Source of the DNA: an uncultured Methanosarcinales archaeon
GTDB taxonomy: Archaea > Nanobdellota > Nanobdellia > Woesearchaeales > CAZOXR01
Reading direction: 5' to 3'
Assembly: GCA_964566535.1 (NCBI GenBank)
Contig: CAZMIO010000011.1
Coordinates: 1-37,935 of the forward strand
Length of the DNA stretch: 37,935 nucleotides
Part shown: in pieces, positions 15,496 through 37,851 of the stretch
Numbering within the stretch: the first letter of the stretch is position 1
How the letters are laid out: the number at the start of each line of letters is the position of its first letter
Translations under genes and position numbers: made by a program
Notes under the pieces: generated by a model
The model's input: only the letters and a program-made list of their open reading frames with translations
Databases searched by the model: none
What the model was told of the DNA's origin: nothing

Positions 15496-15496
15496 G

Positions 15497-18446: not shown

Positions 18447-18866
18447 ATGGAAGACAAACAACAAGAGATACAACAAAAATACATGGAAATGCAGGCATTA
18501 CAGCAACAGATTAAGCAAAGTCAGGGTCAGATTGGGGCTTTAGGACAACAATTAGGGGAGTTAGAAGGGATAAGTCAAAGTTTGGATGACTTGGGCAATG
18601 TAAAAGAAGATAGTGATGCTTTAGTACAGATAAGCAATGGAATATTTGCTAAAGCAACTATAAAGAGTGGTGAAGATCTTATTGTAAATGTTGGTGCAAA
18701 CTTAGCCGTTAAAAAAGATATTGAATCTACAAAACAACTTATTGAAGAACAGATTAAAGAAATCGGTAAGTTGCATAAGAATAAGACTGAAGAGATTCAG
18801 GGTATAACTACTAAAGCAATTTTGATTGAAAAAGAACTTGCAAATTTTATGGGAAACAAAGGGTAA
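18447..18866 (+). CDS. pfdA: Prefoldin subunit alpha
   Basis: Two coiled coils flanking beta-hairpins (LVQISNGIFAKA, LIVNVGANLAVKK); upstream of ftsY as is usual in archaea. Confidence 0.92.
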   Translation: MEDKQQEIQQKYMEMQALQQQIKQSQGQIGALGQQLGELEGISQSLDDLGNVKEDSDALVQISNGIFAKATIKSGEDLIVNVGANLAVKKDIESTKQLIEEQIKEIGKLHKNKTEEIQGITTKAILIEKELANFMGNKG

Positions 18867-18870
18867 GATT

Positions 18871-20466
18871 ATGTTTAAATTCTTAAAAGAGAAATTAAAG
18901 AATAGTGTTTCAAGTATTTCTAAGAAGATTGATGATGAAGGTAAGGAAGATATTATTGAAGAAGAGGTTCCCGTTGAAGAGTCCTCTGAAGTTAAGGAAG
19001 AGGAGAAAAAAGTTGATGTTTCTGAGAGTGAAGAAGTTAAAGAAGAAAGTTCTAGTGAAACTAAAGAAAAAGATTCTAATGAAGAAAACGTTGAAGAAGA
19101 GCCAAAGAAGAAAGGATTTTTTGCTAAATTAAAAGAAAAGTTCGTTCAGAAAGAAGAGATTGATGAAGAGGGTTTTGAAGAGGTTCATTTAAAGAGCGAG
19201 ATAGAGGGTGCTATTAAAGAAAAGGAAGTTGAGAAAGAAGAAGAAAAACTTTCTAAGAAAGATGGAGAAATAAAGGAGAAGGTTGAGAAGAAAGAAACTC
19301 CTTCTATTCAAGAACTAAATGAGAGGAAGGAACAAGAAGAGAAAGTTGTTGAGAAGAAGGAAGATAAAGTTGAGGAAAAAGAAGAAGTAAAAGTTCCTGT
19401 TGAAGAGCCTCCTAAAGTTGAAGGAGAAGTTAAAGAAGGTGTCGTTAGTGAAGAAGAAAAAGTTGATACTGAAAAAGAAGAAATAATTCAAGAAAAAAAG
19501 AGTGAAGAAATTGTTGAAGACAAGGAAGAAGTAGAAGAAACCAAAACAGTTGAAGATGATGCTGAAGAAGAACCAAAGAAAAAAGGATTTTTTGGAAGAA
19601 TAAAAGAAAAAATAGTTACTAAGAAGATAAATGAAAGTCAGTTTGAAGAGATATTCTGGAATTTAGAAACTGCACTGCTTGAAAATAACATTGCAGTAGA
19701 AGTTATTGATAAAATTAAAGATGATTTAAAGGTAGAGATTGTCGATACTGCAATTAAAAGAGGCAAGATTGAAGAAACAATTGAGCAGACACTTAGGAAG
19801 TCAATTAAAGAGATATTAGAAATTGGAACCTTCGATATTGTTGAAAAGATTAAGGGGAAGAAACCTTTTGTAATTTGTTTCCTGGGCATAAATGGTTCTG
19901 GGAAGACTACATCAATTGCTAAATTTACTGATTTGTTAAAGAACGAAGGATTAAAAGTTGTACTTGCCGCCGCAGATACATTTAGGGCTGCATCTATTGA
20001 GCAACTACAGGCACATGCTGAGAAGTTAGATGTTAAACTAATTAAACAAGATTATGGTGCTGATCCTGCTGCTGTTGCTTTTGATGCCATAGATCATGCT
20101 AAATCTAAGGATATGGATGTTGTACTAATTGATACAGCTGGAAGGATGCATTCAAACATCAATCTAATTGATGAACTTAAAAAAGTCGTGAGGGTTGCTA
20201 AACCAGATCTAAAAATCTTTGTCGGTGAAAGCATAACTGGTAATGATTGTGTTGAACAGGCTAAGAAGTTTGATGAAGCTGTTGGCGTTGATGGCGTTAT
20301 ATTAACTAAATCAGATATTGATGAAAAAGGCGGTGCAATGATTTCTGTTTCGTACGTTACTAAGAAGCCAATATTATATTTGGGGACTGGTCAAGAGTAT
20401 AAGGACCTTAAGAAGTTTGATTCTAGTGTTATTGTTGAGGGTTTGGGTTTAGAAGGAGAAGTTTAA
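18871..20466 (+). CDS. ftsY: SRP receptor FtsY with a long acidic N-terminal region
   Basis: GINGSGKTTS, AADTFRAAS, DTAGR, TKSD and GTGQEY. Start placed at the ATG at 18871 (MFKFLKEKL). Confidence 0.97.
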   Translation: MFKFLKEKLKNSVSSISKKIDDEGKEDIIEEEVPVEESSEVKEEEKKVDVSESEEVKEESSSETKEKDSNEENVEEEPKKKGFFAKLKEKFVQKEEIDEEGFEEVHLKSEIEGAIKEKEVEKEEEKLSKKDGEIKEKVEKKETPSIQELNERKEQEEKVVEKKEDKVEEKEEVKVPVEEPPKVEGEVKEGVVSEEEKVDTEKEEIIQEKKSEEIVEDKEEVEETKTVEDDAEEEPKKKGFFGRIKEKIVTKKINESQFEEIFWNLETALLENNIAVEVIDKIKDDLKVEIVDTAIKRGKIEETIEQTLRKSIKEILEIGTFDIVEKIKGKKPFVICFLGINGSGKTTSIAKFTDLLKNEGLKVVLAAADTFRAASIEQLQAHAEKLDVKLIKQDYGADPAAVAFDAIDHAKSKDMDVVLIDTAGRMHSNINLIDELKKVVRVAKPDLKIFVGESITGNDCVEQAKKFDEAVGVDGVILTKSDIDEKGGAMISVSYVTKKPILYLGTGQEYKDLKKFDSSVIVEGLGLEGEV

Positions 20467-21134
20467 CTAAACTCAATCTCTCCATTTAGATATATTCCTT
20501 TATGTAGCTTAACAGGACGCCAACTATCAATCACCAGATTAGCATCCAACCATTTAGCTAGTTCTTCTGGATTTCCTATTGTTGCCGATAGCGCAATTAA
20601 TTGTACGTTTTTTAGAAGTTGTTTTAGGAGAGTTAATAGTATCTCAAGAGTGGGTCCCCTTTTAGGATCATTTAGTAGGTGGACTTCATCTATGATTACT
20701 GTTGTAATGGACGATATCCAAGAAGTCTTATGTCTTAGTAAAGAATCCATTTTTTCCACTGTTAAAATTAGAAGGTCATAGTTTGAAAGCCATTCAGATC
20801 CTGAGTCAATATCTCCTGTAGAGATTGCCACTTGGTAATTTGTATCTTTTAGTAGGTTCTTATAATCATTGTATTTTTCGTTTGCTAATGCTTTCATTGG
20901 AACCAAATAAACCGCTTTTCCTTTTGTTTCTTCTAATCTTTTTGTTATTGCTAGTGTTGCAATGGCAGTCTTACCAGAACCAGTTGGAGTACAAACTAAG
21001 AGGTTTTTGTTGTCTAAAAGCCCATGTTGTATTGCTTTTATTTGTCCAGGATTAAGTTTTGAGATATTTTGTTCCTGGAATTTCTTTATTACAAAATCTG
21101 GCACTTTATGACTTTTTAGTTCGTTTATGTCCAT
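20463..21134 (-). CDS. Stand-alone N-terminal RecA1 domain of a Ski2-like (Hel308) helicase
   Basis: Q motif LNPGQ, motif I PTGSGKT, Ia VPMKALANEK, DEVH, RGPTLE, motif III LSAT and WRPV, followed by a stop. No RecA2 or downstream domains. Confidence 0.88.
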   Translation of the reverse strand: MDINELKSHKVPDFVIKKFQEQNISKLNPGQIKAIQHGLLDNKNLLVCTPTGSGKTAIATLAITKRLEETKGKAVYLVPMKALANEKYNDYKNLLKDTNYQVAISTGDIDSGSEWLSNYDLLILTVEKMDSLLRHKTSWISSITTVIIDEVHLLNDPKRGPTLEILLTLLKQLLKNVQLIALSATIGNPEELAKWLDANLVIDSWRPVKLHKGIYLNGEIEFS

Positions 21135-21186
21135 TATTTTGGTAAAAAACAAAATCTTTATATATTTTTATGTAAAGTTAAGGAAT

Positions 21187-23962: not shown

Positions 23963-25009
23963 ATGAATAAAATACCCATAAAAACAATTAATGAGATAAA
24001 ACAAATATATATTGATGATAAGAGTTCAACTCTTACTGATTTAGCAAAAAGATTTTCTATTTCTAGAGAAAGGATTAAAAAAAGATTAGTTAAAGGAGGC
24101 ATTGATATAAGATCAAATCAAGAAATTGCCGATTTTAAGAAAGAAGAGGCAGTTGAAAATCTTTGTAAATTATACAATAAAATAATGTCCTTGAGAAAAG
24201 TTAGAAAATTAACTGGGCATTCAATAAACTTCATAAAAAGATGCATTAAGGGAAAAGTTCAATTTCCCATTTACCCTAGGCCCTTAAAAGAAGAGTTTGA
24301 TAAAGTAACAAAGGAGAAAGTTAGAATTTATGCACACTCTATTTTTGATGGGCACGTCAGTCATAGTAAGGGTAATTCATATATTGTAGGTTATACAAAT
24401 AAATGTCCTGAGTTACTAAGAGAATTCGGTAATGATGTAGAATATGTTTATGGTATAAAAAAGGGCGAATACTTATTAAAATCGGGAGTTACAAATTTAA
24501 TTTATTCTTCAAAATTAATGTATTTAGACATACTAAACTTTAATAAGTCGATAGTGAAAGAGGATCCCGAATATAAAAAAGTATACCTGCGGGCTTTTTT
24601 CGATGATGAAGGTTGTGTTATTTTTAATCCATCTAAAGGTAAATTTTTTATTAATGGGAAACAGCACAATCAAAAAGAAATATTATTTATTAAGTCATTA
24701 TTAGATGATTTTGGAATTGGAAGTAAAGTATATAAATTTGTAATAGAGATAACTCTTAACAAATCCATTATTGAATATAGCAAACTCATTGGATTCACAC
24801 ACCCTGAAAAAAGAAGAAAAATTTTAACTGGTATAGCTTATTATGAAAAAAAGTTTAGGAAGATTAATAATCAAAATCTTAGAATTAAAAAATTTACACT
24901 TAAAGGGATGGGTCCTTACCAGATATCAAAACTAATTGGTATGCCTCCGACCACTATAAGGCATCGAATAGATTCTGGCTTTAAATCAATTAAATATGAT
25001 TATGGTTGA
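23963..25009 (+). CDS. Free-standing LAGLIDADG (DOD) homing-endonuclease-like protein with N- and C-terminal HTH motifs
   Basis: Motif 1 IYAHSIFDGHV, motif 2 YLRAFFDDEGCV and IGFTHPEK; HTH-like LTDLAKRFSISRERI, SLRKVRKLTG and GMGPYQISKLIGMPPTTIRH; strong GAGGTGA SD; visibly more AT-rich than its neighbours. Confidence 0.85.
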   Translation: MNKIPIKTINEIKQIYIDDKSSTLTDLAKRFSISRERIKKRLVKGGIDIRSNQEIADFKKEEAVENLCKLYNKIMSLRKVRKLTGHSINFIKRCIKGKVQFPIYPRPLKEEFDKVTKEKVRIYAHSIFDGHVSHSKGNSYIVGYTNKCPELLREFGNDVEYVYGIKKGEYLLKSGVTNLIYSSKLMYLDILNFNKSIVKEDPEYKKVYLRAFFDDEGCVIFNPSKGKFFINGKQHNQKEILFIKSLLDDFGIGSKVYKFVIEITLNKSIIEYSKLIGFTHPEKRRKILTGIAYYEKKFRKINNQNLRIKKFTLKGMGPYQISKLIGMPPTTIRHRIDSGFKSIKYDYG

Positions 25010-25755
25010 GATTTTTCTGTTTTCTTTTGGGGGTAAACATATCCACGCATCCAATAAACGCCTGCATAAACCGCCGGAGTGTCGACGATAGCGATGACTA
25101 CTTTCAATAACCAGTAAGGTATAATTAATGCGAATAGGTAAGCTACTGTGAACTTTGGTGATGTATTTAGGATTTGAGGTATGAAATCGAAGGGTAAGTA
25201 GAATAATGCGATGAACATGAAGACTACTGTGTCTATAAGTTGAGAGATGATTGTGGATAAGTTGTTTCTTAACCACAAGTATTTTCCTTTTGTTTTTTCT
25301 TTCCAGAAGTTAAATGCCCAAATGTCATGTGTTTGGCTCAGGATGAATGCTGTAACGCTTGCTATGAAGAATCTAATACTCATTCCAAAAACTCTATTGT
25401 ATTGTTCCGCTTGGACATAAGAACGATCTGCAAATGGTAAGGAAACTGCTAGTACTGCCATTAGTAATACGAATACTACACAAATAAAAGCAACCCTCAC
25501 AAATTCCTTAGTTTTTGCCTTTCCATGAACTTCTTCTATGATATCTGTTATGACAAATGTTAAAGGGAATGCAAAGATTCCAACGCTAAATTCTATGAAA
25601 CCTAAGTGAGTTATTTTTGAACCTAATAGATTAGCTGCTATGATTGCTGCTACGAATAAACCTAATAGAAGATTTGTTTTTTTCTCTAATTTTTTATCAT
25701 TGTTAGCATTAAGTTTATTGCCAATTTTATCTTGAGTAGTTTCTTTAGTCCCCAT
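25000..25755 (-). CDS. yhhQ: preQ0/preQ1 (7-deazaguanine) precursor transporter, YhhQ/Vut_1 family
   Basis: AANLLGSK, FPLTFVITDII.EVHG, AS..AF..SQ..D, LWLRNNLST..SQLIDT and VDTP. Confidence 0.92.
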   Translation of the reverse strand: MGTKETTQDKIGNKLNANNDKKLEKKTNLLLGLFVAAIIAANLLGSKITHLGFIEFSVGIFAFPLTFVITDIIEEVHGKAKTKEFVRVAFICVVFVLLMAVLAVSLPFADRSYVQAEQYNRVFGMSIRFFIASVTAFILSQTHDIWAFNFWKEKTKGKYLWLRNNLSTIISQLIDTVVFMFIALFYLPFDFIPQILNTSPKFTVAYLFALIIPYWLLKVVIAIVDTPAVYAGVYWMRGYVYPQKKTEKSQP

Positions 25756-25802: not shown

Positions 25803-27458
25803 TTAAGGGGTTGTTATAGATTTTGTCATAATTATATTCTTTTCTTTGAATTCATTATTGTCTTGGTCAACTGCAGTTACAGCGAAATGGTATTCTGCAC
25901 CACTTTCTAGAGTGTTTACATTAATGTCAATTGTCGTATCCATCGTTGAAATCTGATTTGAGAATTCAAATGAATCTTTTTCGTAGTAGACTTTGTAAGA
26001 AGTGATTGAATCTGTTAAAAGAGTTCCATCAATGTTTGTTGTTGGTTGTGACCACATTAATTCAATTACTTGGTTTCCGTTCTTCGTTTTTATTGTTGGT
26101 GGATCTAAGTTTACTAGGTTTGGTGCAAGAGTGTCAGTTGGAGTTCCTTGGTTGTAGTTCTGAGATTGAGTTAGCTTCTGGTTGTCATCTTCGTTGTTTA
26201 TTTCGTTATCTGCTGCATCTACTGCTGTGATTGCCACATTATATTGTTCATTTGTTGGTAAATGTATGGAGAGGATGAGTTTGCCATTAATTTCGTAGAG
26301 TTCGTTGTCTTTTAGCTCAATCCTGTCAGGAGTATCATCTAGTTGAATTACTGAGTAAAGGAATGTGCATTTGCTTTCTGCTTGATTGTAATCACATTCT
26401 ACTGGAGTTAAATCCATTGTCTTAAATTTATTTTCGTCTTTTATATTTGAAGTTATGTCCAAGGGGATTAGCGTACTTAATTTATGATTTTCAATTTTTG
26501 AGTTTATCAATGATATTTTTGAATAATAGATTGAATAGTATTTTAGGTCTTGATCATTTAGTTTGCCCCACTCCAAAATTAAATGCTTGTCGGATTTTTG
26601 TCTGTCGTAAGCATTTAGGTCTTTAATTGGTCTTGGAGGCAGGTCATCCATGAATAGTGCAAATTTTATTTGGGGTGAGAAAAGTTGAGGGAGGGATGAG
26701 TATTGATTGGCTACATATAGTTGAGTAGTGGGGGTTGCGCAAAACTTAAAAATATTTTTTGTCACTGCACATTTTGGTTTTGAATTTGTGTCTTTTACGA
26801 AAATTAACTCATCATTGTTTTTGTATATGGTCATGGTGTTGTAATCCCATTCCGCGTCAAACCAATTGTTGATTTCTAATCCCAATTTTGCACTGTCGAA
26901 TGTATTGTCGCCATTATATTTTATGAAGTAGTCAATATATTCTCTTTCTGTCAGTTCAGATGGATTATCTCCTGTATAGGATGGGATGTTTTCTAAGTTG
27001 TATGTTAATTGATTTAAGGTCACTGATTGGTCTTTTGAGAGTTTAATCTTGTATTCTTGGTCAAGGTTCTGGTAGTGGGTAAAATCCAAGGTGAAATCGC
27101 AGACACAGTCATTATCTGCTGTTGCTGCGCAGAGTTCATATTGTTCGATGAAATCGTAGAAAAGGTCGTTTATTCCGTTTTTACAGGATCCTTGTGATAA
27201 GGATAGTTCTGGGTGAGTTAGTTCGAATTGCGTTGTTCTGAGATTTATACAATCTGCTATGTTGTCTGATGATAGGCAAGGGAGGAGATTGTTTTTTACT
27301 TCATCAGTTAATGTTTGGTAGTCGCCTATTATGTTGTAGTCAACTGTTGTTGTGAATGAAGGATTTATTGAGTAAGTTCCCACTTTTATTTCGGTAGCCC
27401 CTCTAATAAAAACTATTAAAGTCGTGAAGAGTATTAGGTAGATTATTTTTTTATTCAT
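25803..27458 (-). CDS. Secreted/surface protein with a Cys-containing N-terminal region and two fibronectin type III-like domains
   Basis: Signal MNKKIIYLILFTTLIVFIRG; FN3 patterns LILEW...YYSIYY...YNVAITAVD..DNE and ELMW...YKVYY...LESGAEYHFAVTAVD..NNE. Confidence 0.8.
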   Translation of the reverse strand: MNKKIIYLILFTTLIVFIRGATEIKVGTYSINPSFTTTVDYNIIGDYQTLTDEVKNNLLPCLSSDNIADCINLRTTQFELTHPELSLSQGSCKNGINDLFYDFIEQYELCAATADNDCVCDFTLDFTHYQNLDQEYKIKLSKDQSVTLNQLTYNLENIPSYTGDNPSELTEREYIDYFIKYNGDNTFDSAKLGLEINNWFDAEWDYNTMTIYKNNDELIFVKDTNSKPKCAVTKNIFKFCATPTTQLYVANQYSSLPQLFSPQIKFALFMDDLPPRPIKDLNAYDRQKSDKHLILEWGKLNDQDLKYYSIYYSKISLINSKIENHKLSTLIPLDITSNIKDENKFKTMDLTPVECDYNQAESKCTFLYSVIQLDDTPDRIELKDNELYEINGKLILSIHLPTNEQYNVAITAVDAADNEINNEDDNQKLTQSQNYNQGTPTDTLAPNLVNLDPPTIKTKNGNQVIELMWSQPTTNIDGTLLTDSITSYKVYYEKDSFEFSNQISTMDTTIDINVNTLESGAEYHFAVTAVDQDNNEFKEKNIIMTKSITTP

Positions 27459-27459
27459 T

Positions 27460-28548
27460 TTAAGTATAGCCTTCTTCTCGTGGAGGAATTTTTCCTAGGT
27501 CCGCTAATAGTATATGGCCAGTTAGACTAATCCTTGACCAGTCGAAATTGGGAGATGGGTCCCATTTGCCTATTGCAGCAGTTGTGACTTGGTAGTGGCC
27601 TAAGACATGTTGATTGTCTGCCTTTATTGATGGCCACCTAACTGCAATGTCATTTATCAGGTCTTTTATGGAGTTGTATTGAGCATTTGTATATTGCATG
27701 TCTGCTTTTCCAGTGTTAACAATCTCTATTCCAATTGAACGAGCATTCCATCCTTTTGCATGGTAGGCCATTTTATCTTCAGTTACTGGATTATGGATTG
27801 TTCCGTCACGGTCAACTATGTAATGGACTGATAATCCTCTGTTTCTCAATGCTCTGAAAGTTTGGGCTGCTGATGAGTCCCCTGTATGATGAAGAATAAT
27901 TCTATCAACTACTGCGCTTCTTGGCCTTGATCTTGAATCTAGCCTTCCAACGTAGTTGGATGAGACTGTTGTTGTAGGAGTTGTTACAACTCCTTGTGAA
28001 GGGGCCCTGGTTTGTGACGATATGTCTACATTAGGGATCTCTTTTTTTCTTTCTTTGATATCCAAGGTTAATGGTTGGAGGGCAAATCCATTAACTGTTG
28101 TTTTTTGGTTTTCTTCTGTTATTAGGAAATTGTAGTTTGTTTGTGGAATGTCTGGATAGTTAATTAAGTATAGGTCTAGGTTAGTTATTATTGAATCTGA
28201 TAGTTCTTTGGCAATATCTGGGTAACATTTTTCTCCAGTATGTTCAAAGTCGTCGTTCCAGATAGTATAACCAAAATAATTACCGCAATTGGGAGGTTCT
28301 GCATGTCCACCTTGTTGGCCTAGGTCGAATATTGCTTGTTGTGCCGAGTATTTTGCGGATTGGTCTATTATGAATAAGTTTTTTTCGGCTTCATGGTAAG
28401 TATCTATTATATCTTTAGGGAGCTGGCCTACGTCCCTTGTTAGTTTAGCTGTTTTAGTATGAACAGTTACCACTAAAACTACTAATACAAATATCATCAC
28501 AGCTAGGAATGATATGTCAAAAAACATGTCTGCTTTTTTATTCTTCAT
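27460..28548 (-). CDS. Pilin-like (class III signal) protein fused to a C-terminal N-acetylmuramoyl-L-alanine amidase (Amidase_2/AmpD-like)
   Basis: MKNKKA|DMFFD plus a hydrophobic helix; S/T/P linker; IILHHTG, SVHYIVDRDG, AYHA..WNARSIGIE, VLGH and KWDPSPNFDW. Confidence 0.9.
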   Translation of the reverse strand: MKNKKADMFFDISFLAVMIFVLVVLVVTVHTKTAKLTRDVGQLPKDIIDTYHEAEKNLFIIDQSAKYSAQQAIFDLGQQGGHAEPPNCGNYFGYTIWNDDFEHTGEKCYPDIAKELSDSIITNLDLYLINYPDIPQTNYNFLITEENQKTTVNGFALQPLTLDIKERKKEIPNVDISSQTRAPSQGVVTTPTTTVSSNYVGRLDSRSRPRSAVVDRIILHHTGDSSAAQTFRALRNRGLSVHYIVDRDGTIHNPVTEDKMAYHAKGWNARSIGIEIVNTGKADMQYTNAQYNSIKDLINDIAVRWPSIKADNQHVLGHYQVTTAAIGKWDPSPNFDWSRISLTGHILLADLGKIPPREEGYT

Positions 28549-29005
28549 TTTGGTAAATTTCTATTTGGAATTTGATTGGTTGATTTGGGATTTTTGATGG
28601 AAGTAATATGAGATATGTGTTTGATTTACCACTGCAAACGGAGTCATCGCAGAACTTTGTTACTTCGTTGTCATCTATTGATATTTTCCACCCAGTTTTT
28701 TTGTTGAATGTTGTTTCTAGTGCTGTTGAAGTTGTTGTTGTTAATTGGGTGTAGTCACCATTATGGTATGCCCCAGTTATTATATCTGCCATATTATTAC
28801 CATTTGCACCATAATTAAGATAATAAGTTATGAACAAATTAGACTTTGAATCAACCATCATATTGTTTATCTTAAATTGTATACGTTGTTCTGCCATCGG
28901 GACATAGATGAACATTAGTGATCCCATTATTATGAACGTGCCGATTATTCCAAAGATTACAAAAGAGAGGTAATCTGCGCTTGTTTGGGCTTTTTTTGAT
29001 TTCAT
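28538..29005 (-). CDS. Pilin-like protein (class III signal peptide)
   Basis: MKSKKA|QTSAD plus a hydrophobic helix; overlaps its neighbours in the operon. Confidence 0.8.
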   Translation of the reverse strand: MKSKKAQTSADYLSFVIFGIIGTFIIMGSLMFIYVPMAEQRIQFKINNMMVDSKSNLFITYYLNYGANGNNMADIITGAYHNGDYTQLTTTTSTALETTFNKKTGWKISIDDNEVTKFCDDSVCSGKSNTYLILLPSKIPNQPIKFQIEIYQNEE

Positions 29006-29502
29006 TTTTGGAAATGTGCAGTCACTATGAGTTTTCCTTTTGTATATGTGTCTTCGTCTTTTATTGTAACTAATATTGATTGAGTTATCGAATCGTAATT
29101 TTTATTTATCAGTCTTGGTTCGATTGATTCGTAAAGTTTTTGGTTGTAGAAGATTTCCGTTGGAGGTTGTGATTCTGGCTCTAAGGTAAGTTTGAAACTT
29201 ATTTGGAGTTTTGTTTCGTTGAATAAGTCTTTTAGGACTTGTTCGTTGAATTTATCTATGTCTACGATGTTAGTGTAATGTCTTTTTGTTAATTCATTTG
29301 TGTAGAATACGGAGTTTTTTGAGTAGAAGACGCGGTTGAAGAGAATATGAGATTCAAGATCTCCTGTTGATAGTGATGATTCTAAAGCTGCTCCAACAAT
29401 AAACCTTATTCCTACGTAGAAGGGGATTAGGATGAAGAGGATTGTAATTACCCACATCCATGTGTATACAGTAACTCTTGCTTTTTTGTTTTTAATCATC
29501 AT
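29002..29502 (-). CDS. Pilin-like protein (class III-like signal peptide)
   Basis: KNKKA|RVTVY plus a hydrophobic helix; ATGA coupling to the next gene. Confidence 0.75.
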   Translation of the reverse strand: MMIKNKKARVTVYTWMWVITILFILIPFYVGIRFIVGAALESSLSTGDLESHILFNRVFYSKNSVFYTNELTKRHYTNIVDIDKFNEQVLKDLFNETKLQISFKLTLEPESQPPTEIFYNQKLYESIEPRLINKNYDSITQSILVTIKDEDTYTKGKLIVTAHFQK

Positions 29503-30445
29503 ATTGTTCTATACCTTTGTTTATTGAGGATGAAATTGCAAGCATTGCTTCTTCGTTTTCTAAGAGGTTTTGAGATTCTCCTATCCTTTGGTTGCCAATC
29601 TGTAGGATAACTGCTATGTTATCTTGGTTAAGTGCTCCATATTCAGATGTTGGGATGATAGTTATCCCAGTTATTCCTTTTAGGTTGTTTTCTTGTATTA
29701 GTGTGTTTAGGTCAGTGTTAGTTATTATTTCGTTTAGGATTAAGCAGGCTACACGTTCTGATTCTAGTGATTTTGCCGAAGACGATGAAATGTATGCTAC
29801 TAAGTTATTATTGTTTTCATCAAAATTAGAAGTGAATTTGATTAATGAGATGAATGCGTCTTTTGATGAAGTGATTATATCTGGGGAATCTAGGTGTTCT
29901 TTTGTAACTAATGGCGGGATGTAGAGAGATTTTCCTTGGACGGTTTCTGCGTTTTCTATTTCTGGGCAGACGAAGGTGAATGGGGTTATTTGAGTGTTAA
30001 AGTCAGTTATACTCATCTTGTTGCCAAGTTTTGTAATCTTTATCTGAACTTTTTCTTTTAATTCATCTTCTTCGAAAGTCGGTTCTAAAGTTGTTTCTTG
30101 AAAAGAGATGTTTCTATCGTTTATGATGGGATGGGTTTGCTTGTGGAGTATTGTGTTTGGGTCATAAACTTCAATTTTGGAATTTGTGAAGGTGAAGGTG
30201 AAAGCGTGGGTGTCCTTAGGATAGTTTAGCTCAACATTTCCTGGTGCTGAGTAGATTGTGTCTATTAAGATAGCTAAATCTTTTTTTAGAAAGATTTTTT
30301 CGAACAAAGTGTGGTTTCTAATTTCTTCAAAAAAGCTTAGAAGGCCGAAGAAAATTACTCCAAAAACTATGACTAATGCAAAGGCTGGAATCATAGCCAT
30401 CTCAATAGTTTCACTACCTCTTTTTCCCCGGAACAAACTATACAT
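29492..30445 (-). CDS. Pilin-like protein with a C-terminal, probably degenerate Amidase_3-like domain
   Basis: GKRG|SETIE plus a hydrophobic helix. The C-terminal DAFISL...VAYIS...SERVACLILNEI...GALNQDNIAVILQIGN resembles the Amidase_3 pattern but lacks the catalytic His/Glu (domain call made by eye). Confidence 0.7.
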   Translation of the reverse strand: MYSLFRGKRGSETIEMAMIPAFALVIVFGVIFFGLLSFFEEIRNHTLFEKIFLKKDLAILIDTIYSAPGNVELNYPKDTHAFTFTFTNSKIEVYDPNTILHKQTHPIINDRNISFQETTLEPTFEEDELKEKVQIKITKLGNKMSITDFNTQITPFTFVCPEIENAETVQGKSLYIPPLVTKEHLDSPDIITSSKDAFISLIKFTSNFDENNNNLVAYISSSSAKSLESERVACLILNEIITNTDLNTLIQENNLKGITGITIIPTSEYGALNQDNIAVILQIGNQRIGESQNLLENEEAMLAISSSINKGIEQYDD

Positions 30446-30482
30446 ATGTTAATTTTAGGAAGAAGTATTTAAATAGTTTACC

Positions 30483-30953
30483 TTAAGTGGTTGGATTAGA
30501 AATGGTTATAATTCCATCAGCGTCTTTTTTTATAAATACATTCGTTATTGCTTCTACTGTGAATTCAGCTATTTTAAAATTACCATTTTTTATTTTCTGG
30601 CAGGCAGGTCTTGGTTTAGGTCTTTCCGTATCTATTATACAAAGCTGAGCAGTATTTTGACTGCATTCATCATCTGGCGGTCCTTCGCAGACCTTTAATG
30701 ACTTTAATATATATTTGCCCCCCACCTCTTTGTTCACCGGAAATGGAATTGTTGCTGATTTGTTGTTTTCTAAATTGTTTATCTCAATTGCTAGCCTCAT
30801 CAGTTTGTCTTGAGTTGCTAAATCTGGTTTTTGAGTTATAAAATTCCATGCAACTATTGGGATTTTAGAAGACCATAAAGCTAGAAGGAATATAAAGAAG
30901 ATTGCGAGAGTCATAAGTTCTCGCATTGTCATTTCTACTGCTTTTTTATTCAT
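30483..30953 (-). CDS. Pilin-like protein (class III signal peptide)
   Basis: MNKKA|VEMTMRE plus a hydrophobic helix; four Cys in the globular part. Confidence 0.78.
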   Translation of the reverse strand: MNKKAVEMTMRELMTLAIFFIFLLALWSSKIPIVAWNFITQKPDLATQDKLMRLAIEINNLENNKSATIPFPVNKEVGGKYILKSLKVCEGPPDDECSQNTAQLCIIDTERPKPRPACQKIKNGNFKIAEFTVEAITNVFIKKDADGIITISNPTT

Positions 30954-31260
30954 CTTTTTTTATACGTTCGCAGCAGAGTGTCTCATCTGGACAGTCCCCC
31001 CATCCCCCGCTTGGTGCAGGAATCTCTTCATAGTAGAAATTGTCAGTTTCACCGCAGGTGTCTTGGCAGTTTTTGTTTGACATAAACCCTTTGCAAACTG
31101 TGCCTTCCCTTATGCCTTTAGTAGTATTACTAATACTTGTAAAACCTGCTGCAAAGTCTTTTATTTGAGATCCGAAGATAGCTATTACAACTACCAGTAC
31201 GAACAGAACAATTGCAGCTACTACAACTGTTTCCATAGAGATTGCTGCTCTTTTTTTCAT
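30946..31260 (-). CDS. Small Cys-rich pilin-like protein
   Basis: MKKRA|AISME-TVVVAAIVLFVLVVVIAIF; six Cys ending WGDCPDETLCC. Confidence 0.85.
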   Translation of the reverse strand: MKKRAAISMETVVVAAIVLFVLVVVIAIFGSQIKDFAAGFTSISNTTKGIREGTVCKGFMSNKNCQDTCGETDNFYYEEIPAPSGGWGDCPDETLCCERIKKDE

Positions 31261-31369: not shown

Positions 31370-32014
31370 ATGGAAAAAAAGGTGCTGGCAGGATTTATCA
31401 TCATAGTTCTTGGAGTTATGATAGTATCTACTTATTTCTTTTTGGAATTTTTTGGTGGTGGTGAAGAGGTTGGAGATAGTGATGAGATAATCATAGATAG
31501 AGGAAATGTTAAAGAGGTTAATGTTGAGCAGATAACTAGTGGTAGTGGCCATTTAGATATGTTTGGGCAACAGTTTGACAATGGAAAAATATCCACTGTT
31601 TTTGGATATAGTGGGTTTTATCACGGTGAATTTTTTGAGTATGAGTATAGGGATGAGCAGGATAAGTTAATGATGAGGATTACTAATGAGATGGAACCCT
31701 TCAATGGAGTTATTGAAGGCTTTGCTGTTGCCAATATAGTAGATAATAAACCAATTGTGCAGATATTTTTAGATGAGGACTGGAAAAGGGAGGTTGGTGA
31801 CACATTTATATGGTATGGAGTAGGATATAAAAATTACAAAGAATTCAATTTTAATGAAATCTCTGAAGGAATTTACTCTGACTCAATAGAGGATGACCCT
31901 GGCAGATTTATGGCAGAATTTACATTACATTTAGGTGGAGTAATCATAGGAGACGTTTCTAAAGAAAAGATTAAGAATGAAGATGAAGATATTACTTTAA
32001 TTAAGTTTGAATAA
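31370..32014 (+). CDS. Hypothetical N-terminally anchored acidic protein
   Basis: TATA-like TTTATATAAA ~30 nt upstream; one N-terminal TM; D/E-rich body; the only plus-strand gene in the pilin array. Confidence 0.8.
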   Translation: MEKKVLAGFIIIVLGVMIVSTYFFLEFFGGGEEVGDSDEIIIDRGNVKEVNVEQITSGSGHLDMFGQQFDNGKISTVFGYSGFYHGEFFEYEYRDEQDKLMMRITNEMEPFNGVIEGFAVANIVDNKPIVQIFLDEDWKREVGDTFIWYGVGYKNYKEFNFNEISEGIYSDSIEDDPGRFMAEFTLHLGGVIIGDVSKEKIKNEDEDITLIKFE

Positions 32015-32015
32015 G

Positions 32016-35000
32016 TTAATTTCTTACTGGCCATTTTGCGCCGGCTACGTTCAATAAAACGTCAGTTACTACACTTGTTGCTACAATTCCAGGGAGACCA
32101 ATAATTGCTCCTGCCCCTGTTGAGCTAACTCCTGTGAAAAAAGCATCAGCAACTAGTGATCCTGAGAATATTAAAAACTTTAAAGCTGCCCTTGGAGCAT
32201 TTATTCCACCGCTATAACAATAATTTGCCCCCCTTTCAAGCATATAACCTTGGTCTAGTTCTTCTAATCCGACCAATATGCATGGCCCGGAAGTTGGCCC
32301 TACTTCAGCTGTAAGTTGTGAAGTCGATAATTCAGCGAATATTCCTCCTGGTGTAGTTACGGGCGACTGATAGAGTTTACAATGTTTTACCCCTCGTGAT
32401 AAATCGCTATTAAAAGTTGTTAATTTCCTGTAATTAAATACATAGTCTTTTGATGCATCCCATATAATTGTATCTCCGAATTGTGAAGGGTTCTGAGGGT
32501 CAACGTCCCTTCCAAGAATGTGGTCGAATGGAGGTCTTGTTAATGGCTGTCCAGTATAGTATGCATTATAATTTTGGTTTACTTCATACATATTTGTCAG
32601 CATCTCGCCCAATAGTTTTGCAGTGAGGCCTAACTTATTTTGATTTCGTTCAAATGTAACTGGATTTGTTAATATTGGGCTATTCTCTGGCAATATCACT
32701 GTTGTAGCATCAGTAAATATCCTTGTATTAATAAAGATCATAAGATTATCAAACCCATCATCTGGGTCAGCAATATTAGAACCATCTACAATATCTTGAA
32801 TACTATTAGTACCTGGATTTGAAATTAATCCTCCACTGACTGCTCTGAAATCAAGTACTCTTGGATCATTTTTCATAGCTGTTGTAATTTGCCTTGTTTC
32901 CATATCTGTTAATGAATTATCCCTCATGAATTCTGCTGCTCTTAATACAATTTGATGATATTCTCCTAAGAATTTCGTAAGAAGTTCTGAATTTTCAAAT
33001 AAGTTTGATGCGCAATTATCATGTGTGTCTTGTTCATAACCATTAAGTGGGTTTGAAAGATCAATTTTTGCACTGCATAATCTAGCCATATATTCCCTAT
33101 TAGATTCTCCGAATTCTGGTTGATCCCACCAATAAACTATTTCTGGAACTGTTGTAAACGTTGCAGTACTCTTTTCTAAAGGATGTTGAAGTGTAGTTCC
33201 TCCTTCTTTAGTATAAACATCGCTTTTTGTTTCAATTTCACAACGGCAATTTGTTTTTTCCACTACTAAATTTGCTTTGCATGGACTAACTAAGAATAGC
33301 CTTTTGATATCATCGTGTCCCCCCCTTATAGCAGAAAGAATGTTATTTTCCTTATTCAGGCCAATAAAATAATCAGTCATGTAAGGCTCCAAGTTATATC
33401 CTACTCCCTCTCCTTCCTCCACTAAAGTTGGTGTGCTTACAGTTAATGTATTTAACCCCTTAGGAACATATTTTTCATTCAAACCCTCTCTATATTTTGA
33501 AATCCTATCAACTACAAATAAAGCAAATAGTTTATGGTTATTGGTAAACTTTATTGTTCCTACTGTTGCTCCACCAGCTAATGCTGTTCCAGTTATTGCT
33601 CCTACTGCACCAATTGCAGCTCCTTGGGGCCCGCCGACAAAGAACCCCACTATCCCTCCAACTGTTGCTGATTTAAATGATCCTGAAAGCCCTATTCTTC
33701 TCGCTGTTGATGTAGAGAAAGGAATAAACTTTATTCCTGCTGCTCTTGCTGTTCTTTGTGCCGAATCAAAAACATTAACTCCATCCTGCCACGTTGTTCC
33801 AAACATATTCCTAAGGAAACCATTTGCCATTGTCTTAAGTTCCCCATCTCGTCTAACTGCTTCTAGTATTTTATCGAAGAATTCCTGCTCTAATTCAGCT
33901 ATTGTTGCTCTGTCTAAATTTCCCAGTGTTAGTTTAGTTAGGAAATTACCATTTGAATCAAATAAAGCAGGGGTTAATTGAGTAAATTGTTTCATTGCTG
34001 CCTCTTGAGCAACTTGGCTTTTAGGATATGCTTTTTTTGCAGCTTCCCCCATAATTTCACTTAGTGCGTCTGCATCAACTATGTATTTACCTCCTTCGAA
34101 TCTGAATAAGGTGCTTAATAAATCCCGGTATGCTAATACTGATCTCATATTTTTCTTAGTTAATCTTGTTGCTGCAAATGTTTCATCAGTAGCACTATCA
34201 ATTGTTTTTCTAAATTGTGATGTAAATACATTTTCTCTGGCAATGTCATTTGCTATGTTATCTAATTCTGCGTCTAAGTCTGTAGCAGCTCCCCTTCTAC
34301 TTGCAAGCTCATCAGCTTGAGCTCTTATTTCATTTCTAGTTGCAGTTATAGAATCTGGGAAGTCTTGGTAAATAGTGTCAAGATCGTCAATGTTTCTTAC
34401 ACTTGCATCTGCAATTTGTTCTGGGCCATCAGAAAGACCATATGAGTGATAGTGGTTGTCCATCAATACTCTTCTTTCTGCCATTTCGAAATCTATAGCC
34501 CTCATTGCAGCCGGATCATTAGGATCTACATTACGGTATTTGTTTCTTAAAAATTCCATTTCCTCATCAACTTGATTCCTTATAAAAGGTTCCATATCGT
34601 CTGGATCGTCCGGTAGAATTACCCTTCTTAAGTCATCAGAAACAGATACTCTATTGCCACCAACCACCCTACTACTATGAAATCTTTCCCAGACTTGAGT
34701 ATAGATATCTTCTCGGGTTGTAGTTGAGCCTACCCCTTCTAAGACCTCATCAATCAAACCGAGCCTATGAACTTCATCTAATCCTTTTACACCTAATGTT
34801 CCCTCTATCTGGGAGTCTACCAATGCCTTTCTTATTAAGGATTCTTCATCAAGATTAGCTCTTTTGGATTTACCAAGACTTCTTAGAAATGATCTAACTG
34901 GTCCAGGAGGTAGTTCTTGTTTTAGTTCTTTTTTAAGCTGCTTGCCTACTTTTTTTGCTTCTTTTCTTGCTGCCCTTACTCCAGTACCACGGTTTACACG

Positions 35001-35879
35001 TATTATTTGTTCTTGTGTTTGATCCACGACCTCTCCAATTGTTTTTTTCAAAATTTTTCTTGTGACTACAAATCCCCTAGCTGCTCTGACTGCTCCTGGG
35101 ACTGCAGGTACTACGTTAACTAAACCCCATACTAAATTCCATTTTGTAAGTATCCTGTATGTGTCTGTTGCCCAAGCTGCTTCTTCCCCTGGTGGAAACT
35201 GCTGGTAATGTAAAACATATTTTGGGTCTCCCATACCGCCCGTAATCCAATCCCTCAACCCTGCAAATCCTAATTCGTCCTTTTTTTGGTCTAGGAGGAA
35301 CCCTTTTACCTTACAATTAAATTGAGGTGTATCTTCACAAGTTACACAGGAAGTACCATATACTATGCCATCGCATGATAGGTCTGGCCCTATACATTCA
35401 GAATTATCAACGATAGAGGCGCCCCATCCAAGGTCACCAACACATTCGTCTTCTAAAGTCCATGATGGAGGATTTGCCCCAGTATGGCCACTAGAAAATA
35501 CACAACAAACCGAATTAGCTGGTATGCTTTGGGCTACTTGTTCTTCAGTTATAACTTGGTATTGGGGATCACAATGAGTTCCAGAAAATTCAGGTTTACA
35601 ATCTTCTTCCCACCCCTTACAACCTAGTGCAGTACTCTGAATTGCACAGACTAGTGCATTCATGCTGTCTTCCACTGTTTGTTCTTGTGTAGTTAGATGA
35701 TCCTCGGCAACATAAGGGGTAAATTCCTTTTCTTCAAAGTAATCAAACAAGTTCTTGAAGAAATCATTTGTCTGCGGGAAGAACGGCATGATTATGCCAA
35801 ATACTACAACGACTAATACAAAGGAGAATAGAGCCCACTTTGCTACCATCTCCCAGCTAAGGGCACCTCTTTTTTTCAT
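32016..35879 (-). CDS. Giant (1287 aa) pilin-signal protein with Cys-rich regions, a charged helical core, a glycine zipper and a C-terminal hydrophobic hairpin
   Basis: MKKRG|ALSWE plus TM; Cys-rich N-terminus; VGGIVGFFVGGPQGAAIGAVGAITGTALAGG; C-terminal LKFLIFSGSLVA...GAGAIIGLPGIVATSVV. Confidence 0.85.
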   Translation of the reverse strand: MKKRGALSWEMVAKWALFSFVLVVVVFGIIMPFFPQTNDFFKNLFDYFEEKEFTPYVAEDHLTTQEQTVEDSMNALVCAIQSTALGCKGWEEDCKPEFSGTHCDPQYQVITEEQVAQSIPANSVCCVFSSGHTGANPPSWTLEDECVGDLGWGASIVDNSECIGPDLSCDGIVYGTSCVTCEDTPQFNCKVKGFLLDQKKDELGFAGLRDWITGGMGDPKYVLHYQQFPPGEEAAWATDTYRILTKWNLVWGLVNVVPAVPGAVRAARGFVVTRKILKKTIGEVVDQTQEQIIRVNRGTGVRAARKEAKKVGKQLKKELKQELPPGPVRSFLRSLGKSKRANLDEESLIRKALVDSQIEGTLGVKGLDEVHRLGLIDEVLEGVGSTTTREDIYTQVWERFHSSRVVGGNRVSVSDDLRRVILPDDPDDMEPFIRNQVDEEMEFLRNKYRNVDPNDPAAMRAIDFEMAERRVLMDNHYHSYGLSDGPEQIADASVRNIDDLDTIYQDFPDSITATRNEIRAQADELASRRGAATDLDAELDNIANDIARENVFTSQFRKTIDSATDETFAATRLTKKNMRSVLAYRDLLSTLFRFEGGKYIVDADALSEIMGEAAKKAYPKSQVAQEAAMKQFTQLTPALFDSNGNFLTKLTLGNLDRATIAELEQEFFDKILEAVRRDGELKTMANGFLRNMFGTTWQDGVNVFDSAQRTARAAGIKFIPFSTSTARRIGLSGSFKSATVGGIVGFFVGGPQGAAIGAVGAITGTALAGGATVGTIKFTNNHKLFALFVVDRISKYREGLNEKYVPKGLNTLTVSTPTLVEEGEGVGYNLEPYMTDYFIGLNKENNILSAIRGGHDDIKRLFLVSPCKANLVVEKTNCRCEIETKSDVYTKEGGTTLQHPLEKSTATFTTVPEIVYWWDQPEFGESNREYMARLCSAKIDLSNPLNGYEQDTHDNCASNLFENSELLTKFLGEYHQIVLRAAEFMRDNSLTDMETRQITTAMKNDPRVLDFRAVSGGLISNPGTNSIQDIVDGSNIADPDDGFDNLMIFINTRIFTDATTVILPENSPILTNPVTFERNQNKLGLTAKLLGEMLTNMYEVNQNYNAYYTGQPLTRPPFDHILGRDVDPQNPSQFGDTIIWDASKDYVFNYRKLTTFNSDLSRGVKHCKLYQSPVTTPGGIFAELSTSQLTAEVGPTSGPCILVGLEELDQGYMLERGANYCYSGGINAPRAALKFLIFSGSLVADAFFTGVSSTGAGAIIGLPGIVATSVVTDVLLNVAGAKWPVRN

Positions 35880-35884
35880 TTTAT

Positions 35885-36028
35885 TTAGAAGAACATATCT
35901 TTTATATTTCTTAATATGTCGTTGCTTCCTTTATCTGCCTGCATTACCATAAATACTAGTACTGTCAGGATTATTAGACCTAGGAGTAATAATACAAGTG
36001 TTCTTGCTGCTAATGCTTTTTTTTTCAT
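35885..36028 (-). CDS. Micro-pilin, 47 aa (not in the ORF track): MKKKALAARTLVLLLLGLIILTVLVFMVMQADKGSNDILRNIKDMFF
   Basis: Translated by hand. KKKA|L class III-like signal, TM and amphipathic tail; it fills the gap between two co-oriented genes. Confidence 0.8.
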   Translation of the reverse strand: MKKKALAARTLVLLLLGLIILTVLVFMVMQADKGSNDILRNIKDMFF

Positions 36029-36030
36029 TT

Positions 36031-36996
36031 TTAGTTCATAATTGCGTCGCATTTATCTACAACCTCAGCATAGGGCCATATGAAAACAGAATCTATTGCC
36101 TGTAGATGGTCTTCTTCTTCTATGAAGTCTGCTATATCACTTGCTATTTCAACAAGCCTATGAATATTGATCCTCATGAATACTACTGCGCTGTCATCTC
36201 CAGGTTTATAATATAGCCTGTCTTTGTCTTCTTCTTCAGCAAAAAAATCGCTAATAATCGATTCGTCCAGTGTGAATTCATAATAACTTGTAGGGTCATA
36301 AGAGCTTAAAGGATGGCTTTTCATCCAATCAGGCAATGTAGTTATTTCAAGTTCAGGGTCAACGTCTGCTCCGAATTCAGCCTTTACAGAATCATCAAAT
36401 CTTACTCTTGAACAGATGATGCATGCCTTTTTTGTTAAACTTACATCTTTATTAAATGGGTATACTTTTTTAAAGAATCTTTCTAATTTACCATCATCTG
36501 ACTTTAATGTTCCTTCTTCATATTCTACAATGCTAAACCAATCTGAGAATAAATCTAAGTCTCCCCTACCTAACTTATTCCAGCAGTGTTTTATCTCTTT
36601 TGCCATGATTTCGTTCATGCGGTATTCCATGTAGTCCTTATCTTCCTTTTCTTCATAAGCGGGGTACCAATTAGCTAGTTTTTTTCTTAGTGAAGAAGGA
36701 ATTTTCTTGTTTATGTAAAGAAATTCTTCATCCGGAAAGTTACTTTTTCTATCTTTACCTGCTTCTGATTGTGTTATAGTTACAAATCTTTGCGGGCAGA
36801 CTATCTTTATCGTTTCTGCTCCACTTACTTTCCCCATTGATGCAAAAACAGCTGACCAAGCACAAACGCCCCCTTCTGCTACTGCTTTTGCGAATGATAT
36901 GATGTGAAGGTCTAGTTTTGCTAACACTACAAAAGATAGCAGCATGACTGTTATTATTACTAATATTGCTGCTGTTAACCCTTTTTTTCCTTTCAT
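36031..36996 (-). CDS. Pilin-like protein, 321 aa (start corrected from 37092)
   Basis: MKGKKG|LTAAILVII plus TM; Cys motifs EIKHCWNKLGRG and CIICSRVRF. The ATG overlaps the TGA of the upstream micro-pilin. Confidence 0.82.
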   Translation of the reverse strand: MKGKKGLTAAILVIITVMLLSFVVLAKLDLHIISFAKAVAEGGVCAWSAVFASMGKVSGAETIKIVCPQRFVTITQSEAGKDRKSNFPDEEFLYINKKIPSSLRKKLANWYPAYEEKEDKDYMEYRMNEIMAKEIKHCWNKLGRGDLDLFSDWFSIVEYEEGTLKSDDGKLERFFKKVYPFNKDVSLTKKACIICSRVRFDDSVKAEFGADVDPELEITTLPDWMKSHPLSSYDPTSYYEFTLDESIISDFFAEEEDKDRLYYKPGDDSAVVFMRINIHRLVEIASDIADFIEEEDHLQAIDSVFIWPYAEVVDKCDAIMN

Positions 36997-37133
36997 ATTG
37001 TTAAGATGGGGCCTAAAGTGTTCATTATAATCCATATAATTGCTGCTACAACTGCGATGATAATTGCCATGACTATTGGGACTTCTAACCACTTCCCTAG
37101 ACTTATAACTCCTCGTTTCGCTAATGAATTCAT
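36993..37133 (-). CDS. Micro-pilin, 46 aa (not in the ORF track): MNSLAKRGVISLGKWLEVPIVMAIIIAVVAAIIWIIMNTLGPILTI
   Basis: Translated by hand. KRG|VISL signal plus TM; TATA-like TTTATATA ~30 nt upstream; ATGA coupling to the next gene. Confidence 0.8.
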   Translation of the reverse strand: MNSLAKRGVISLGKWLEVPIVMAIIIAVVAAIIWIIMNTLGPILTI

Positions 37134-37201
37134 TTATATGAATTATAGAAGAAGTGATATATAAATGTTAAGTTATTTTGGTTGAAAAAGGATAAAGGTT
37201 T

Positions 37202-37486
37202 TTATCTTATGGCTCTGATACAACAGTAGTCTGCGTTAGCATCCTTCTCCTCTTGTGTTGTTGGACAGTCAGTTCCAGGGATTATGGTCATATCTTTATT
37301 ATCAGTGCAGTCTGTTTTAGCGTTTGCTACACAAGTTCCACCTTTGGATACACAATCTTCAATTCCACCAACGAATCCGCCTAGCCTTCCTATGAAGATT
37401 GCCACCATCATTACAAGAACTATTAATGCAACTGCTGAGACTATAATTGTATTTATAGAAATTCCTTGAGCTTTTTTTGAAAACAT
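37202..37486 (-). CDS. Small Cys-rich pilin (paralog 2)
   Basis: MFSKKA|QGISINTIIVSAVALIVLV; C..KGG.C......DC...PGTDCP...CC. Confidence 0.88.
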   Translation of the reverse strand: MFSKKAQGISINTIIVSAVALIVLVMMVAIFIGRLGGFVGGIEDCVSKGGTCVANAKTDCTDNKDMTIIPGTDCPTTQEEKDANADYCCIRAIR

Positions 37487-37504
37487 AAAAAGAAAATAAA
37501 AATT

Positions 37505-37783: not shown

Positions 37784-37851
37784 TATAGACACCTCTTGGT
37801 ATATTATAATAGTACTCTCCTTTATGTTATATTTAAATGTTTCTATAACTG

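Follow-up and report, generated by a model that had tools for sequence, protein, structure and literature searches.

A stretch of 37,935 nucleotides from an archaeal genome (the window; its source genome is designated G000) was found to encode a 362-residue protein that, judged by profile and alignment, is an Amidase_2 protein with a complete metal and catalytic site, carried behind a class III (prepilin)-like leader and a conserved N-terminal domain, here called domain A. Comparison of orthologs shows domain A to be followed by a slot for an exchangeable enzyme set in a loop, and the amidase appears to be inserted between A and B, two halves of a single conserved protein that is split here into two genes. 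The evidence tips slightly toward a minor-pilin-like subunit that presents a wall amidase for use against bacteria with which the cell comes into contact, and suggests that these archaea open bacteria in this way. Wall hydrolases have been described in archaea before; their placement in the swappable loop of a conserved pilin-like carrier was not found in print.

The gene for the carrier-amidase protein (domain A, linker and Amidase_2 domain) occupies 27460-28548 on the minus strand and was delimited from the 362-aa ORF, the PF01510 match, the homolog alignment and a structure model (mean pLDDT 78, from a 26-row alignment). The leader, residues 1-6, and the hydrophobic helix, residues 7-30, are encoded at 28459-28548 (minus strand); the predicted cut falls after KKA (KKA|DM) and is followed by the hydrophobic stretch, which supports the prepilin-like N-terminus recognized in an earlier sequence-only reading of this DNA. 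Domain A, residues 31-165 (28054-28458, minus strand), is conserved across the class and has no Pfam family. It is the Cys-containing domain of that reading, with two cysteines, C88 and C108, that are near-invariant among 109 orthologs. It was modeled as a long helix of 76 residues (4-79), a loop region from Cys88 to Cys108, a second helix (112-128) and two strands (139-146 and 149-156) that form a beta-hairpin. The S/T/P-rich linker also stood, with 37.5% S/T/P in residues 166-205; its flexible part, residues 166-190 (27979-28053, minus strand), was assigned from composition and a pLDDT below 50 at 168-185. The Amidase_2 domain, of AmpD/AmiD/T7-lysozyme fold, spans residues 191-345 (27514-27978, minus strand) according to sequence, profile and structure matches. 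The narrower borders first proposed for it, about 27500-27930, have to be revised: since the folded part begins near residue 191, a construct of that extent would remove the start of the domain. The best fold match covers residues 191-345, and P191, S196, Y199 and L203 are near-invariant in 26 full-length homologs.

Assignment to PF01510, which had been proposed from motifs and left to a profile search, was confirmed by a match at residues 213-333 scoring 96.5 bits against a gathering cut-off of 26 (E 2.1e-27). The solved relatives that match best by sequence are AmpD, AmpDh2, T7 lysozyme and AmpDh3. A Foldseek comparison of the model with AmpD (2y2b) gave an E value of 1.4e-10, and the best fold match by VIA was the phage endolysin LysCS (6srt; Z 16.4, rmsd 2.5, 142 residues aligned). 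All motifs read by eye were located: HHT at 220-222, HY at 242-243, YHA at 262-264, SIGIE at 271-275, GH at 317-318 and KWDP at 328-331. Residues E275, H318, K328 and D330 align with E116, H154, K162 and D164 of Citrobacter freundii AmpD, numbers counted along the printed alignment, and H220 aligns with the first His of AmpDh2. We take His/His/Asp to be the metal ligands and Glu and Lys to be the rest of the AmpD-type catalytic site. The codons, computed from the ORF start on the minus strand, lie at 27889-27891 (H220), 27724-27726 (E275), 27595-27597 (H318), 27565-27567 (K328) and 27559-27561 (D330). None of the five residues varies among the 26 full-length homologs aligned, which were chosen among the best 120 of 396 matches; thus the zinc-binding His/His/Asp and the catalytic Glu anticipated from the letters are present and conserved. 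The domain is very probably an active amidase and, from its family and residues, would be a zinc amidase acting on the MurNAc-L-Ala bond.

The sequence has no power to separate specificities within the family, AmpD-like (anhydro-muropeptide) and polymer-cutting relatives scoring 44.9 and 44.0 bits. The protein scored 63.7 bits against a cut-off of 143 for the NCBIfam AmpD equivalog, and the cytoplasmic recycling role of that equivalog is contradicted by the N-terminal export leader and by the lack of an AnmK or GH3 match in G000. The PF01510 fold and the His/His/Asp, Glu and Lys site are shared with AmpD of C. freundii (1j3g/2y28), AmpDh2 and AmpDh3 of Pseudomonas aeruginosa, AmiD of Escherichia coli and phage Amidase_2 endolysins (6srt, 7f5i). 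The window protein differs from all of these in its class III-like carrier and in that its amidase domain belongs to a separate subfamily, a 65-row group (support 97) in a 162-row tree, with no named bacterial row among those sampled. A Pfam search of the 362-aa protein gave no match to a separate wall-binding domain.

That a bacterial or phage amidase was joined to the gene through misassembly or contamination had been named as a way in which the reading could fail. The total GC of the amidase part is above that of domain A (0.416 versus 0.349) and the amidase has close viral relatives; the GC3 of the two parts is nevertheless alike (0.302 versus 0.291). Genes for topoisomerase VI B and for subunit D of RNA polymerase lie in the window, both matched above cut-off; the GC of the window is level along its length, and the closest named homologs among the matches listed belong to Woesearchaeota and Nanoarchaeota. 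The genome is 91% complete with 0.09% contamination. Four sequencing runs from four studies, recorded as marine or seawater metagenomes, were compared. In runs X3 and X8, from two different studies, one contig each spans the junction of domain A and amidase (27538-29316 with zero differences, and 27529-29517) and includes the amidase and upstream pilin-like genes, while X6 and X8 bridge the junction from the amidase gene to the next gene. The full-length fusion recurs in 25 other proteins at 39-58% identity, and two such fusions are syntenic on named Woesearchaeota and Nanoarchaeota contigs (L006 and L008; L, P and f numbers denote compared loci, proteins and families). The recurring fusion, the synteny and the spanning contigs refute an artefact, whose probability we regard as negligible, and the suspicion of a bacterial or chimeric contig was not borne out.

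The distribution of the carrier was determined with profiles, which were used in place of a single-query search with residues 1-165 that returned 2 proteins. The whole-protein profile matched 249 of 301 genomes of the order, mainly via the N-terminal 165 residues (281 matches), and the domain A profile hit 255 of the 301 genomes sampled from the phylum, with the same class for all among the matches listed; the two tallies include eight and two genomes, respectively, marked unpublished, on which nothing else in this work draws. The domain A profile also gathered 2,269 representatives at 50% identity. A sample of 110 of the best-scoring of the 281 matches, two unpublished genomes being skipped, was combined with four further loci, and domain A was present in 109 of these 114, the ortholog set. 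Up to 450 residues after domain A were scanned with Pfam in 102 orthologs, the other seven having tails below 40 aa. A murein family followed domain A in 72 of the 109 (E ≤ 1e-3), and in 69 of 105 when the query and amidase-led loci were left out. The payloads were M23 (25), SLT (23), Amidase_2 (12), M15/VanY (9) and, more rarely, NlpC/P60 (3), 3D (2), GH73 (2) and YkuD (1), with one C39 beside M23, several of these matches being below gathering score. Since this sample leans to amidases, a second scan was ranked on domain A alone. Among its top 150 representatives, 63 had a murein-family payload (59 of 146 new ones at E ≤ 1e-4 and four known amidases), 50 were empty, 20 had short or cut tails and 17 had other contents; fn3 was the only non-murein Pfam family (E ≤ 1e-4). 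CHAP and Amidase_3 were also among the payload families seen. The expectation that orthologs swap this C-terminus for M23, SLT or M15 therefore holds, and extends to NlpC/P60, GH73, 3D, YkuD, CHAP and Amidase_3. Payloads differ even within families of the carrier: M15 plus SLT and NlpC/P60 in f89, SLT and M15 in f15, and 3D and GH73 in f25.

Most payloads appear to have kept their sites. A catalytic-Glu motif test was passed by 21 of 23 SLT payloads and a two-motif test by 14 of 25 M23 payloads, several of the failures being window or variant effects and about six payloads being degenerate by eye. Metal ligands are kept in 10 of the 12 Amidase_2 payloads and lacking in two; at the catalytic position the ten have Glu in five cases and Ser in five. 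Payloads apparently lacking metal ligands were seen in L091, L092, L105, L131, L158 and L178 (five M23, one Amidase_2), which suggests, from the residues, binding-only versions. The tree of domain A was poorly resolved (15 of 106 branches starred); mapping of one label per row, not always the first domain, gave 56 changes against a shuffled mean of 71, a count from which independent gains cannot be read. The difference indicates that payloads cluster by kin, yet change often. No insert occupies the slot in 23 of the 109 orthologs or in the 50 representatives above (L113, L121 and L179 are examples of empty orthologs), so the carrier has an enzyme-free job as well. Other slot contents are unannotated. 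L124 and L153, of one family, carry a payload of about 300 aa without a Pfam match. By eye this payload resembles an alpha/beta hydrolase, and it might be either an exception to the murein-active pattern or a new domain that acts on the envelope. L133 and P0263 also carry an unannotated payload, which in L133 is an insert of 257 aa, and the payloads of L154, L166, L172 and L116 resemble divergent M15/LAS zinc peptidases by eye.

The position of the slot is defined by domain B, which in the window belongs to the next gene (551 aa; 25803-27458, minus strand), identified by Pfam, ortholog comparison and the A-B model as encoding domain B, a Cys-rich region and a C-terminal fn3 domain. The first strand of domain B lies at about 27342-27374, and the 551-aa product has its own signal or anchor helix with no class III motif. 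A and B reside in one polypeptide in 62 of the 109 orthologs. In 23 of these no more than 45 residues separate B from A, and five of the 23 have SLT further on; in the other 39 the insert is longer than 45 aa, and 37 have a murein domain in it. B is encoded by the next gene in 23 orthologs, the window included, and was not found in the stretch examined in 24. It is the placement of the inserts between A and B in the fused orthologs that identifies the enzyme as an insertion. A model of the complex of A (residues 30-172) and the next gene product (23-263) received a score of 0.67, the best of three controls one of 0.01. Of 157 solved complexes, 116 attain the mark for this score, as do 2 of 215 mismatched pairs, counts that apply only approximately with our own alignments. 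The model runs agree in at least 63% of contacts, with partner pLDDT of at least 64, and place B 34-39 antiparallel to A 150-156 and in touch with helix residues 61-69. The alignments were drawn largely from fused orthologs and A and B are halves of a split gene, so the model supports a shared fold more than binding in the cell. Our literature look-up found no precedent for strand complementation across a split gene.

The amidase gene lies in a cluster that extends to the contig end. ORF list and leader reading place five genes with class III-like leaders directly upstream (155, 166, 317, 156 and 104 aa; 28538-31260, minus strand) and four further class III-leader genes beyond them (1287, about 321, 94 and 95 aa; 32016-37792, minus strand). 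In all, 10 of 11 minus-strand genes from 37792 down to 25803 have a class III-like motif and a hydrophobic stretch, the one exception being the gene after the amidase; Glu at +5 is present in 0 of the 10 leaders. The 94- and 95-aa genes are near-identical and, by size, duplication and leader, are candidate major pilins, with no family match in Pfam or NCBIfam. Among the 103 members of the ortholog set with an N-terminal hydrophobic stretch, K or R followed by G, A or S precedes that stretch in 98, against 64 of 217 control ORFs of G000, and a stricter FlaFind-like pattern is present in 53. Class III processing of the leader is accordingly considered likely.

Inside the cluster but on the opposite strand, at 31370-32014 (plus strand), is a 214-aa membrane-anchored gene with no Pfam match, an interruption that has no counterpart in L006 or L008. 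The 1287-aa protein (32016-35879, minus strand), also with no Pfam match, contains 20 Cys; its middle is long, helical and charged, and it has a hydrophobic stretch rich in Gly and Ala. It may be a further payload, one aimed at membranes. Contig C6 of G000 begins with a class III-leader gene (C6:72-2015, minus strand) that matches domain A weakly (E 0.0014) and may continue the cluster cut at the window end.

Domain A was also compared with solved structures and family profiles. The only pilin among its fold matches was PilJ (4ixj; Z 5.4, rmsd 3.0, 72 residues aligned), tied with unrelated helical chains; a match to a phage sheath by VIA (Z 7.2, rmsd 2.8, 78 aligned) is in the range that the tool calls common. 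No Pfam pilin family was matched by the 109 members, which gave 19 scattered weak families, none in more than two members. A search of PDB sequences with the domain A profile gave a best E value of 0.28, and the ESM Atlas gave unnamed archaeal clusters only, with DUF7286 at 0.78, the chance level. A single-sequence model of domain A had a pLDDT of 42. The label pilin-like is thus based on leader, gene cluster and topology and not on a fold match. G000 encodes one A24 prepilin peptidase (C1:46239-47099), one FlaI/TadA-like secretion ATPase and, in the gene after the ATPase, a 721-aa protein taken from its position to be the platform; all are unlinked to the cluster, the peptidase and the ATPase being on other contigs. 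A second T2SSE match in G000 is PINA and not a pilus ATPase.

An alternative is a surface enzyme with no filament, in which the class III-like helix anchors the A and B head in the membrane or S-layer and the amidase acts at the contact patch only. In its favor, the best pilin match of domain A is tied with unrelated chains. The substrate-binding proteins of the Sulfolobus bindosome are a precedent for class III-anchored surface proteins; in the window, moreover, the anchor helix of B, if uncleaved, would tether the complex, orthologs reach more than 1200 aa, which is large for a subunit of a filament shaft, and the ATPase is unlinked to the cluster. This arrangement is nevertheless judged unlikely, because the gene lies within a run of ten class III-leader genes that includes two short duplicated major-pilin candidates, and because most screened Nanobdellati encode core type IV filament machinery with scattered pilins according to the available text of PMC13705601. 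The same source describes the ATPase and platform of Nanobdellati as adjacent with pilins elsewhere, as in G000. Minor pilins of the archaeal type IV filament system 1 (Epd-like), as described in the available texts of PMC13705601 and PMC4858521, likewise have class III leaders, short duplicated major-pilin candidates and many larger class III proteins. We consider incorporation of the carrier subunit into a filament somewhat more probable than its absence.

The amidase is mobile among carriers and has viral relatives. Members of its subfamily are also found attached to B itself (P0025) and to two other types of carrier, which weakly resemble the 156-aa and 104-aa cluster genes of the window (E 3.4e-4 and 2.5e-3). 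On a viral contig (L196:3601-7023) a 1141-aa protein, which we take by motif to be tail- or baseplate-like, ends in an amidase 58% identical to that of the window, and two similar fragments (P0028 and P0031) carry the amidase at the end of a long protein. NCBIfam on the L196 protein and PHROGs on the two fragments returned the amidase only. A thyX-like gene lies near the L196 protein. These amidases group with the query in two trees (support 92-93), but archaeal monophyly of the amidase is not rejected (p-AU 0.32); no bacterial donor was present among the matches listed. Lysins associated with phage tails or baseplates likewise place a wall hydrolase at the end of a contact apparatus, from which the window differs in being a cellular archaeon with a type IV-type carrier. 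A 2.4-kb contig filed under Methanosarcinales (L007) has an amidase identical to that of the Woesearchaeales locus L087 and is probably mis-binned.

The mechanism that we favor is as follows. A conserved cluster of class III-leader (pilin-like) genes in a Woesearchaeota-type archaeon has this protein as its distal product. The six-residue leader of the protein would be cleaved off by the only A24 prepilin peptidase of the genome, and the ATPase and adjacent platform-like protein would draw the long helix into a type IV filament or short pseudopilus. The head of the subunit would be formed by domain A and the first strand of B, as in the modeled strand pairing, with the loop between them as the slot; here the slot holds the putative zinc MurNAc-L-Ala amidase, the gene ends after it, and B is supplied by the next gene. 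Stripping of stem peptides by the amidase would be local and would let the archaeon attach to a bacterial host or prey or gain access to its membrane. G000, 91% complete, has no match to Transgly or Transpeptidase; since neither murein polymerase nor wall-recycling genes were found, the enzyme most likely acts on the wall of a bacterium that the archaeon touches. Pseudomurein as the substrate was set aside. SLT, GH73, M15, M23 and YkuD have MurNAc or D-amino-acid bonds as their targets, and these slot chemistries, together with the identification of the sole Mur-ligase match of G000 as FolC rather than a murein ligase, argue against it.

The favored mechanism has to be weighed against two other uses of the enzyme. 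The payload might mainly bind peptidoglycan to recognize or hold a host, with cutting secondary; degenerate M23 and amidase payloads do occur (L091, L092 and L105), the slot may be empty, and the 362-aa protein has no match to a separate wall-binding domain. Such a role is improbable in view of the retention of all five site residues in 26 of 26 full-length homologs of the amidase subfamily and of the catalytic Glu in 21 of 23 SLT payloads. Equally, the enzyme might digest the walls of dead cells for amino acids or thin competitors in a biofilm, with no host relation. Peptidoglycan of dead bacteria has been suggested as an amino-acid source for Pacearchaeota in the available text of PMC11537232, secreted archaeal hydrolases are reported to kill bacteria (available text of PMC12352652), and among 21 genomes searched an Asp/Glu racemase match was present in 6 and GH3 in 3. 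In G000 itself, at 91% completeness, searches for AnmK, GH3, SBP_bac_5 and Asp/Glu racemase gave no match; it has a single Amidase_2 and no match to SLT, M23, NlpC/P60, Amidase_3 or VanY, and an organism that cuts only one type of bond would be poorly equipped for digestion. A slot that accepts interchangeable chemistries would also fit the making of a hole better than the harvest of a product. Scavenging or self-defence is for these reasons as hard to credit as a binding role, if not slightly harder, and we think use of the amidase on living bacteria somewhat more probable than not.

Lytic transglycosylases have been described in Woesearchaeota, with bacterial hosts or prey inferred from them (PMC8204110, PMC9723730, available texts), which raised the question of whether Woesearchaeota live on bacteria. 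The fam00969 SLT proteins (Castelle 2021; PMC8204110, available text) share with the window protein the lineage, an extracellular murein-active enzyme and the inference of a bacterial host; the window protein differs in being an amidase of 362 aa. With no SLT match in G000 it falls outside fam00969, to which the SLT-bearing orthologs of domain A may belong. Neither a shared carrier nor a swappable slot is described in the available texts of these two papers; the main text of PMC8204110 contains "pilin" and "pilus" 0 times and that of PMC9723730 "pilin" and "pili" 0 times. Modular hydrolases were reported in 175 of 3,706 archaeal genomes, prominently in Nanoarchaeota and with domain shuffling, and haloarchaeal members of the secreted hydrolases were shown to be antibacterial (Strock et al. 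2025; PMC12352652, available text). That survey required a catalytic and a wall-binding domain and counted Sec/Tat signals, a filter that a protein of the window type would escape, which hints that archaeal wall hydrolases are undercounted wherever a wall-binding domain is demanded. The hydrolases of PMC12352652 are, by its available text, patchy, whereas the window carrier is a near single-copy conserved locus. The dead-cell wall as food is discussed in the available text of PMC11537232. "Pilin" is absent from the main texts of PMC8204110, PMC9723730, PMC12352652 and PMC11537232, and "peptidoglycan" occurs 0 times in those of PMC13705601 and PMC4858521, whose available texts describe no enzymatic payload on a minor pilin. 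The available part of a preprint (10.64898/2026.07.27.741052) added nothing on pili, and a literature search of main texts, with few subscription papers, found no paper linking pilins and peptidoglycan hydrolases in Woesearchaeota.

A conserved, near single-copy carrier with a murein-family domain in its slot, in between 63 of 150 and 72 of 109 of the loci sampled, reduces scattered enzyme hits to one apparatus with one marker gene. The system can also be tested directly, through its small soluble enzyme, the predicted site of peptidase cleavage and the predicted interface of two proteins, and it provides a target for FISH or antibodies with which the host might be found. The slot contents that lack annotation are candidate new wall-active domains. 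A wider generalization is offered tentatively and is on present evidence doubtful: that much of Woesearchaeales, with an enzyme-less ancestral form across the class, has a type IV filament in which a loop of the terminal minor subunit is a socket for wall hydrolases of every chemistry, and that the socket can split into two genes whose products re-associate by strand donation. If so, these archaea would be contact parasites or predators of bacteria, the type of payload would track the chemistry of the host wall, and payloads would be traded with tailed viruses.

Several other genes of the window merit description. Beyond the domain B gene is a Vut_1 gene (queuosine-precursor transporter family; 25000-25755, minus strand), in place of which many relatives have a conserved gene of about 330 aa that is RPA-like by reading. 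Just beyond the cluster end a free-standing HTH and LAGLIDADG_3 gene (23963-25009, plus strand) lies in the lowest-GC kilobase of the window (0.279). The gene at 5635-7461 (minus strand) is glmS-like and presumably serves amino-sugar supply; because G000 has no murein polymerase match, the amino sugars are probably for surface glycans. Two adjacent genes inserted after the ribosomal-protein cluster (14014-16627, plus strand) look to us like homospermidine synthase and ornithine/lysine decarboxylase. An FtsY-like gene (18826-20466, plus strand) encodes a long acidic N-terminal region with two similar KKKGFF motifs, and a neighboring 229-aa gene (20463-21152, minus strand) encodes only the N-terminal DEAD domain of a helicase.
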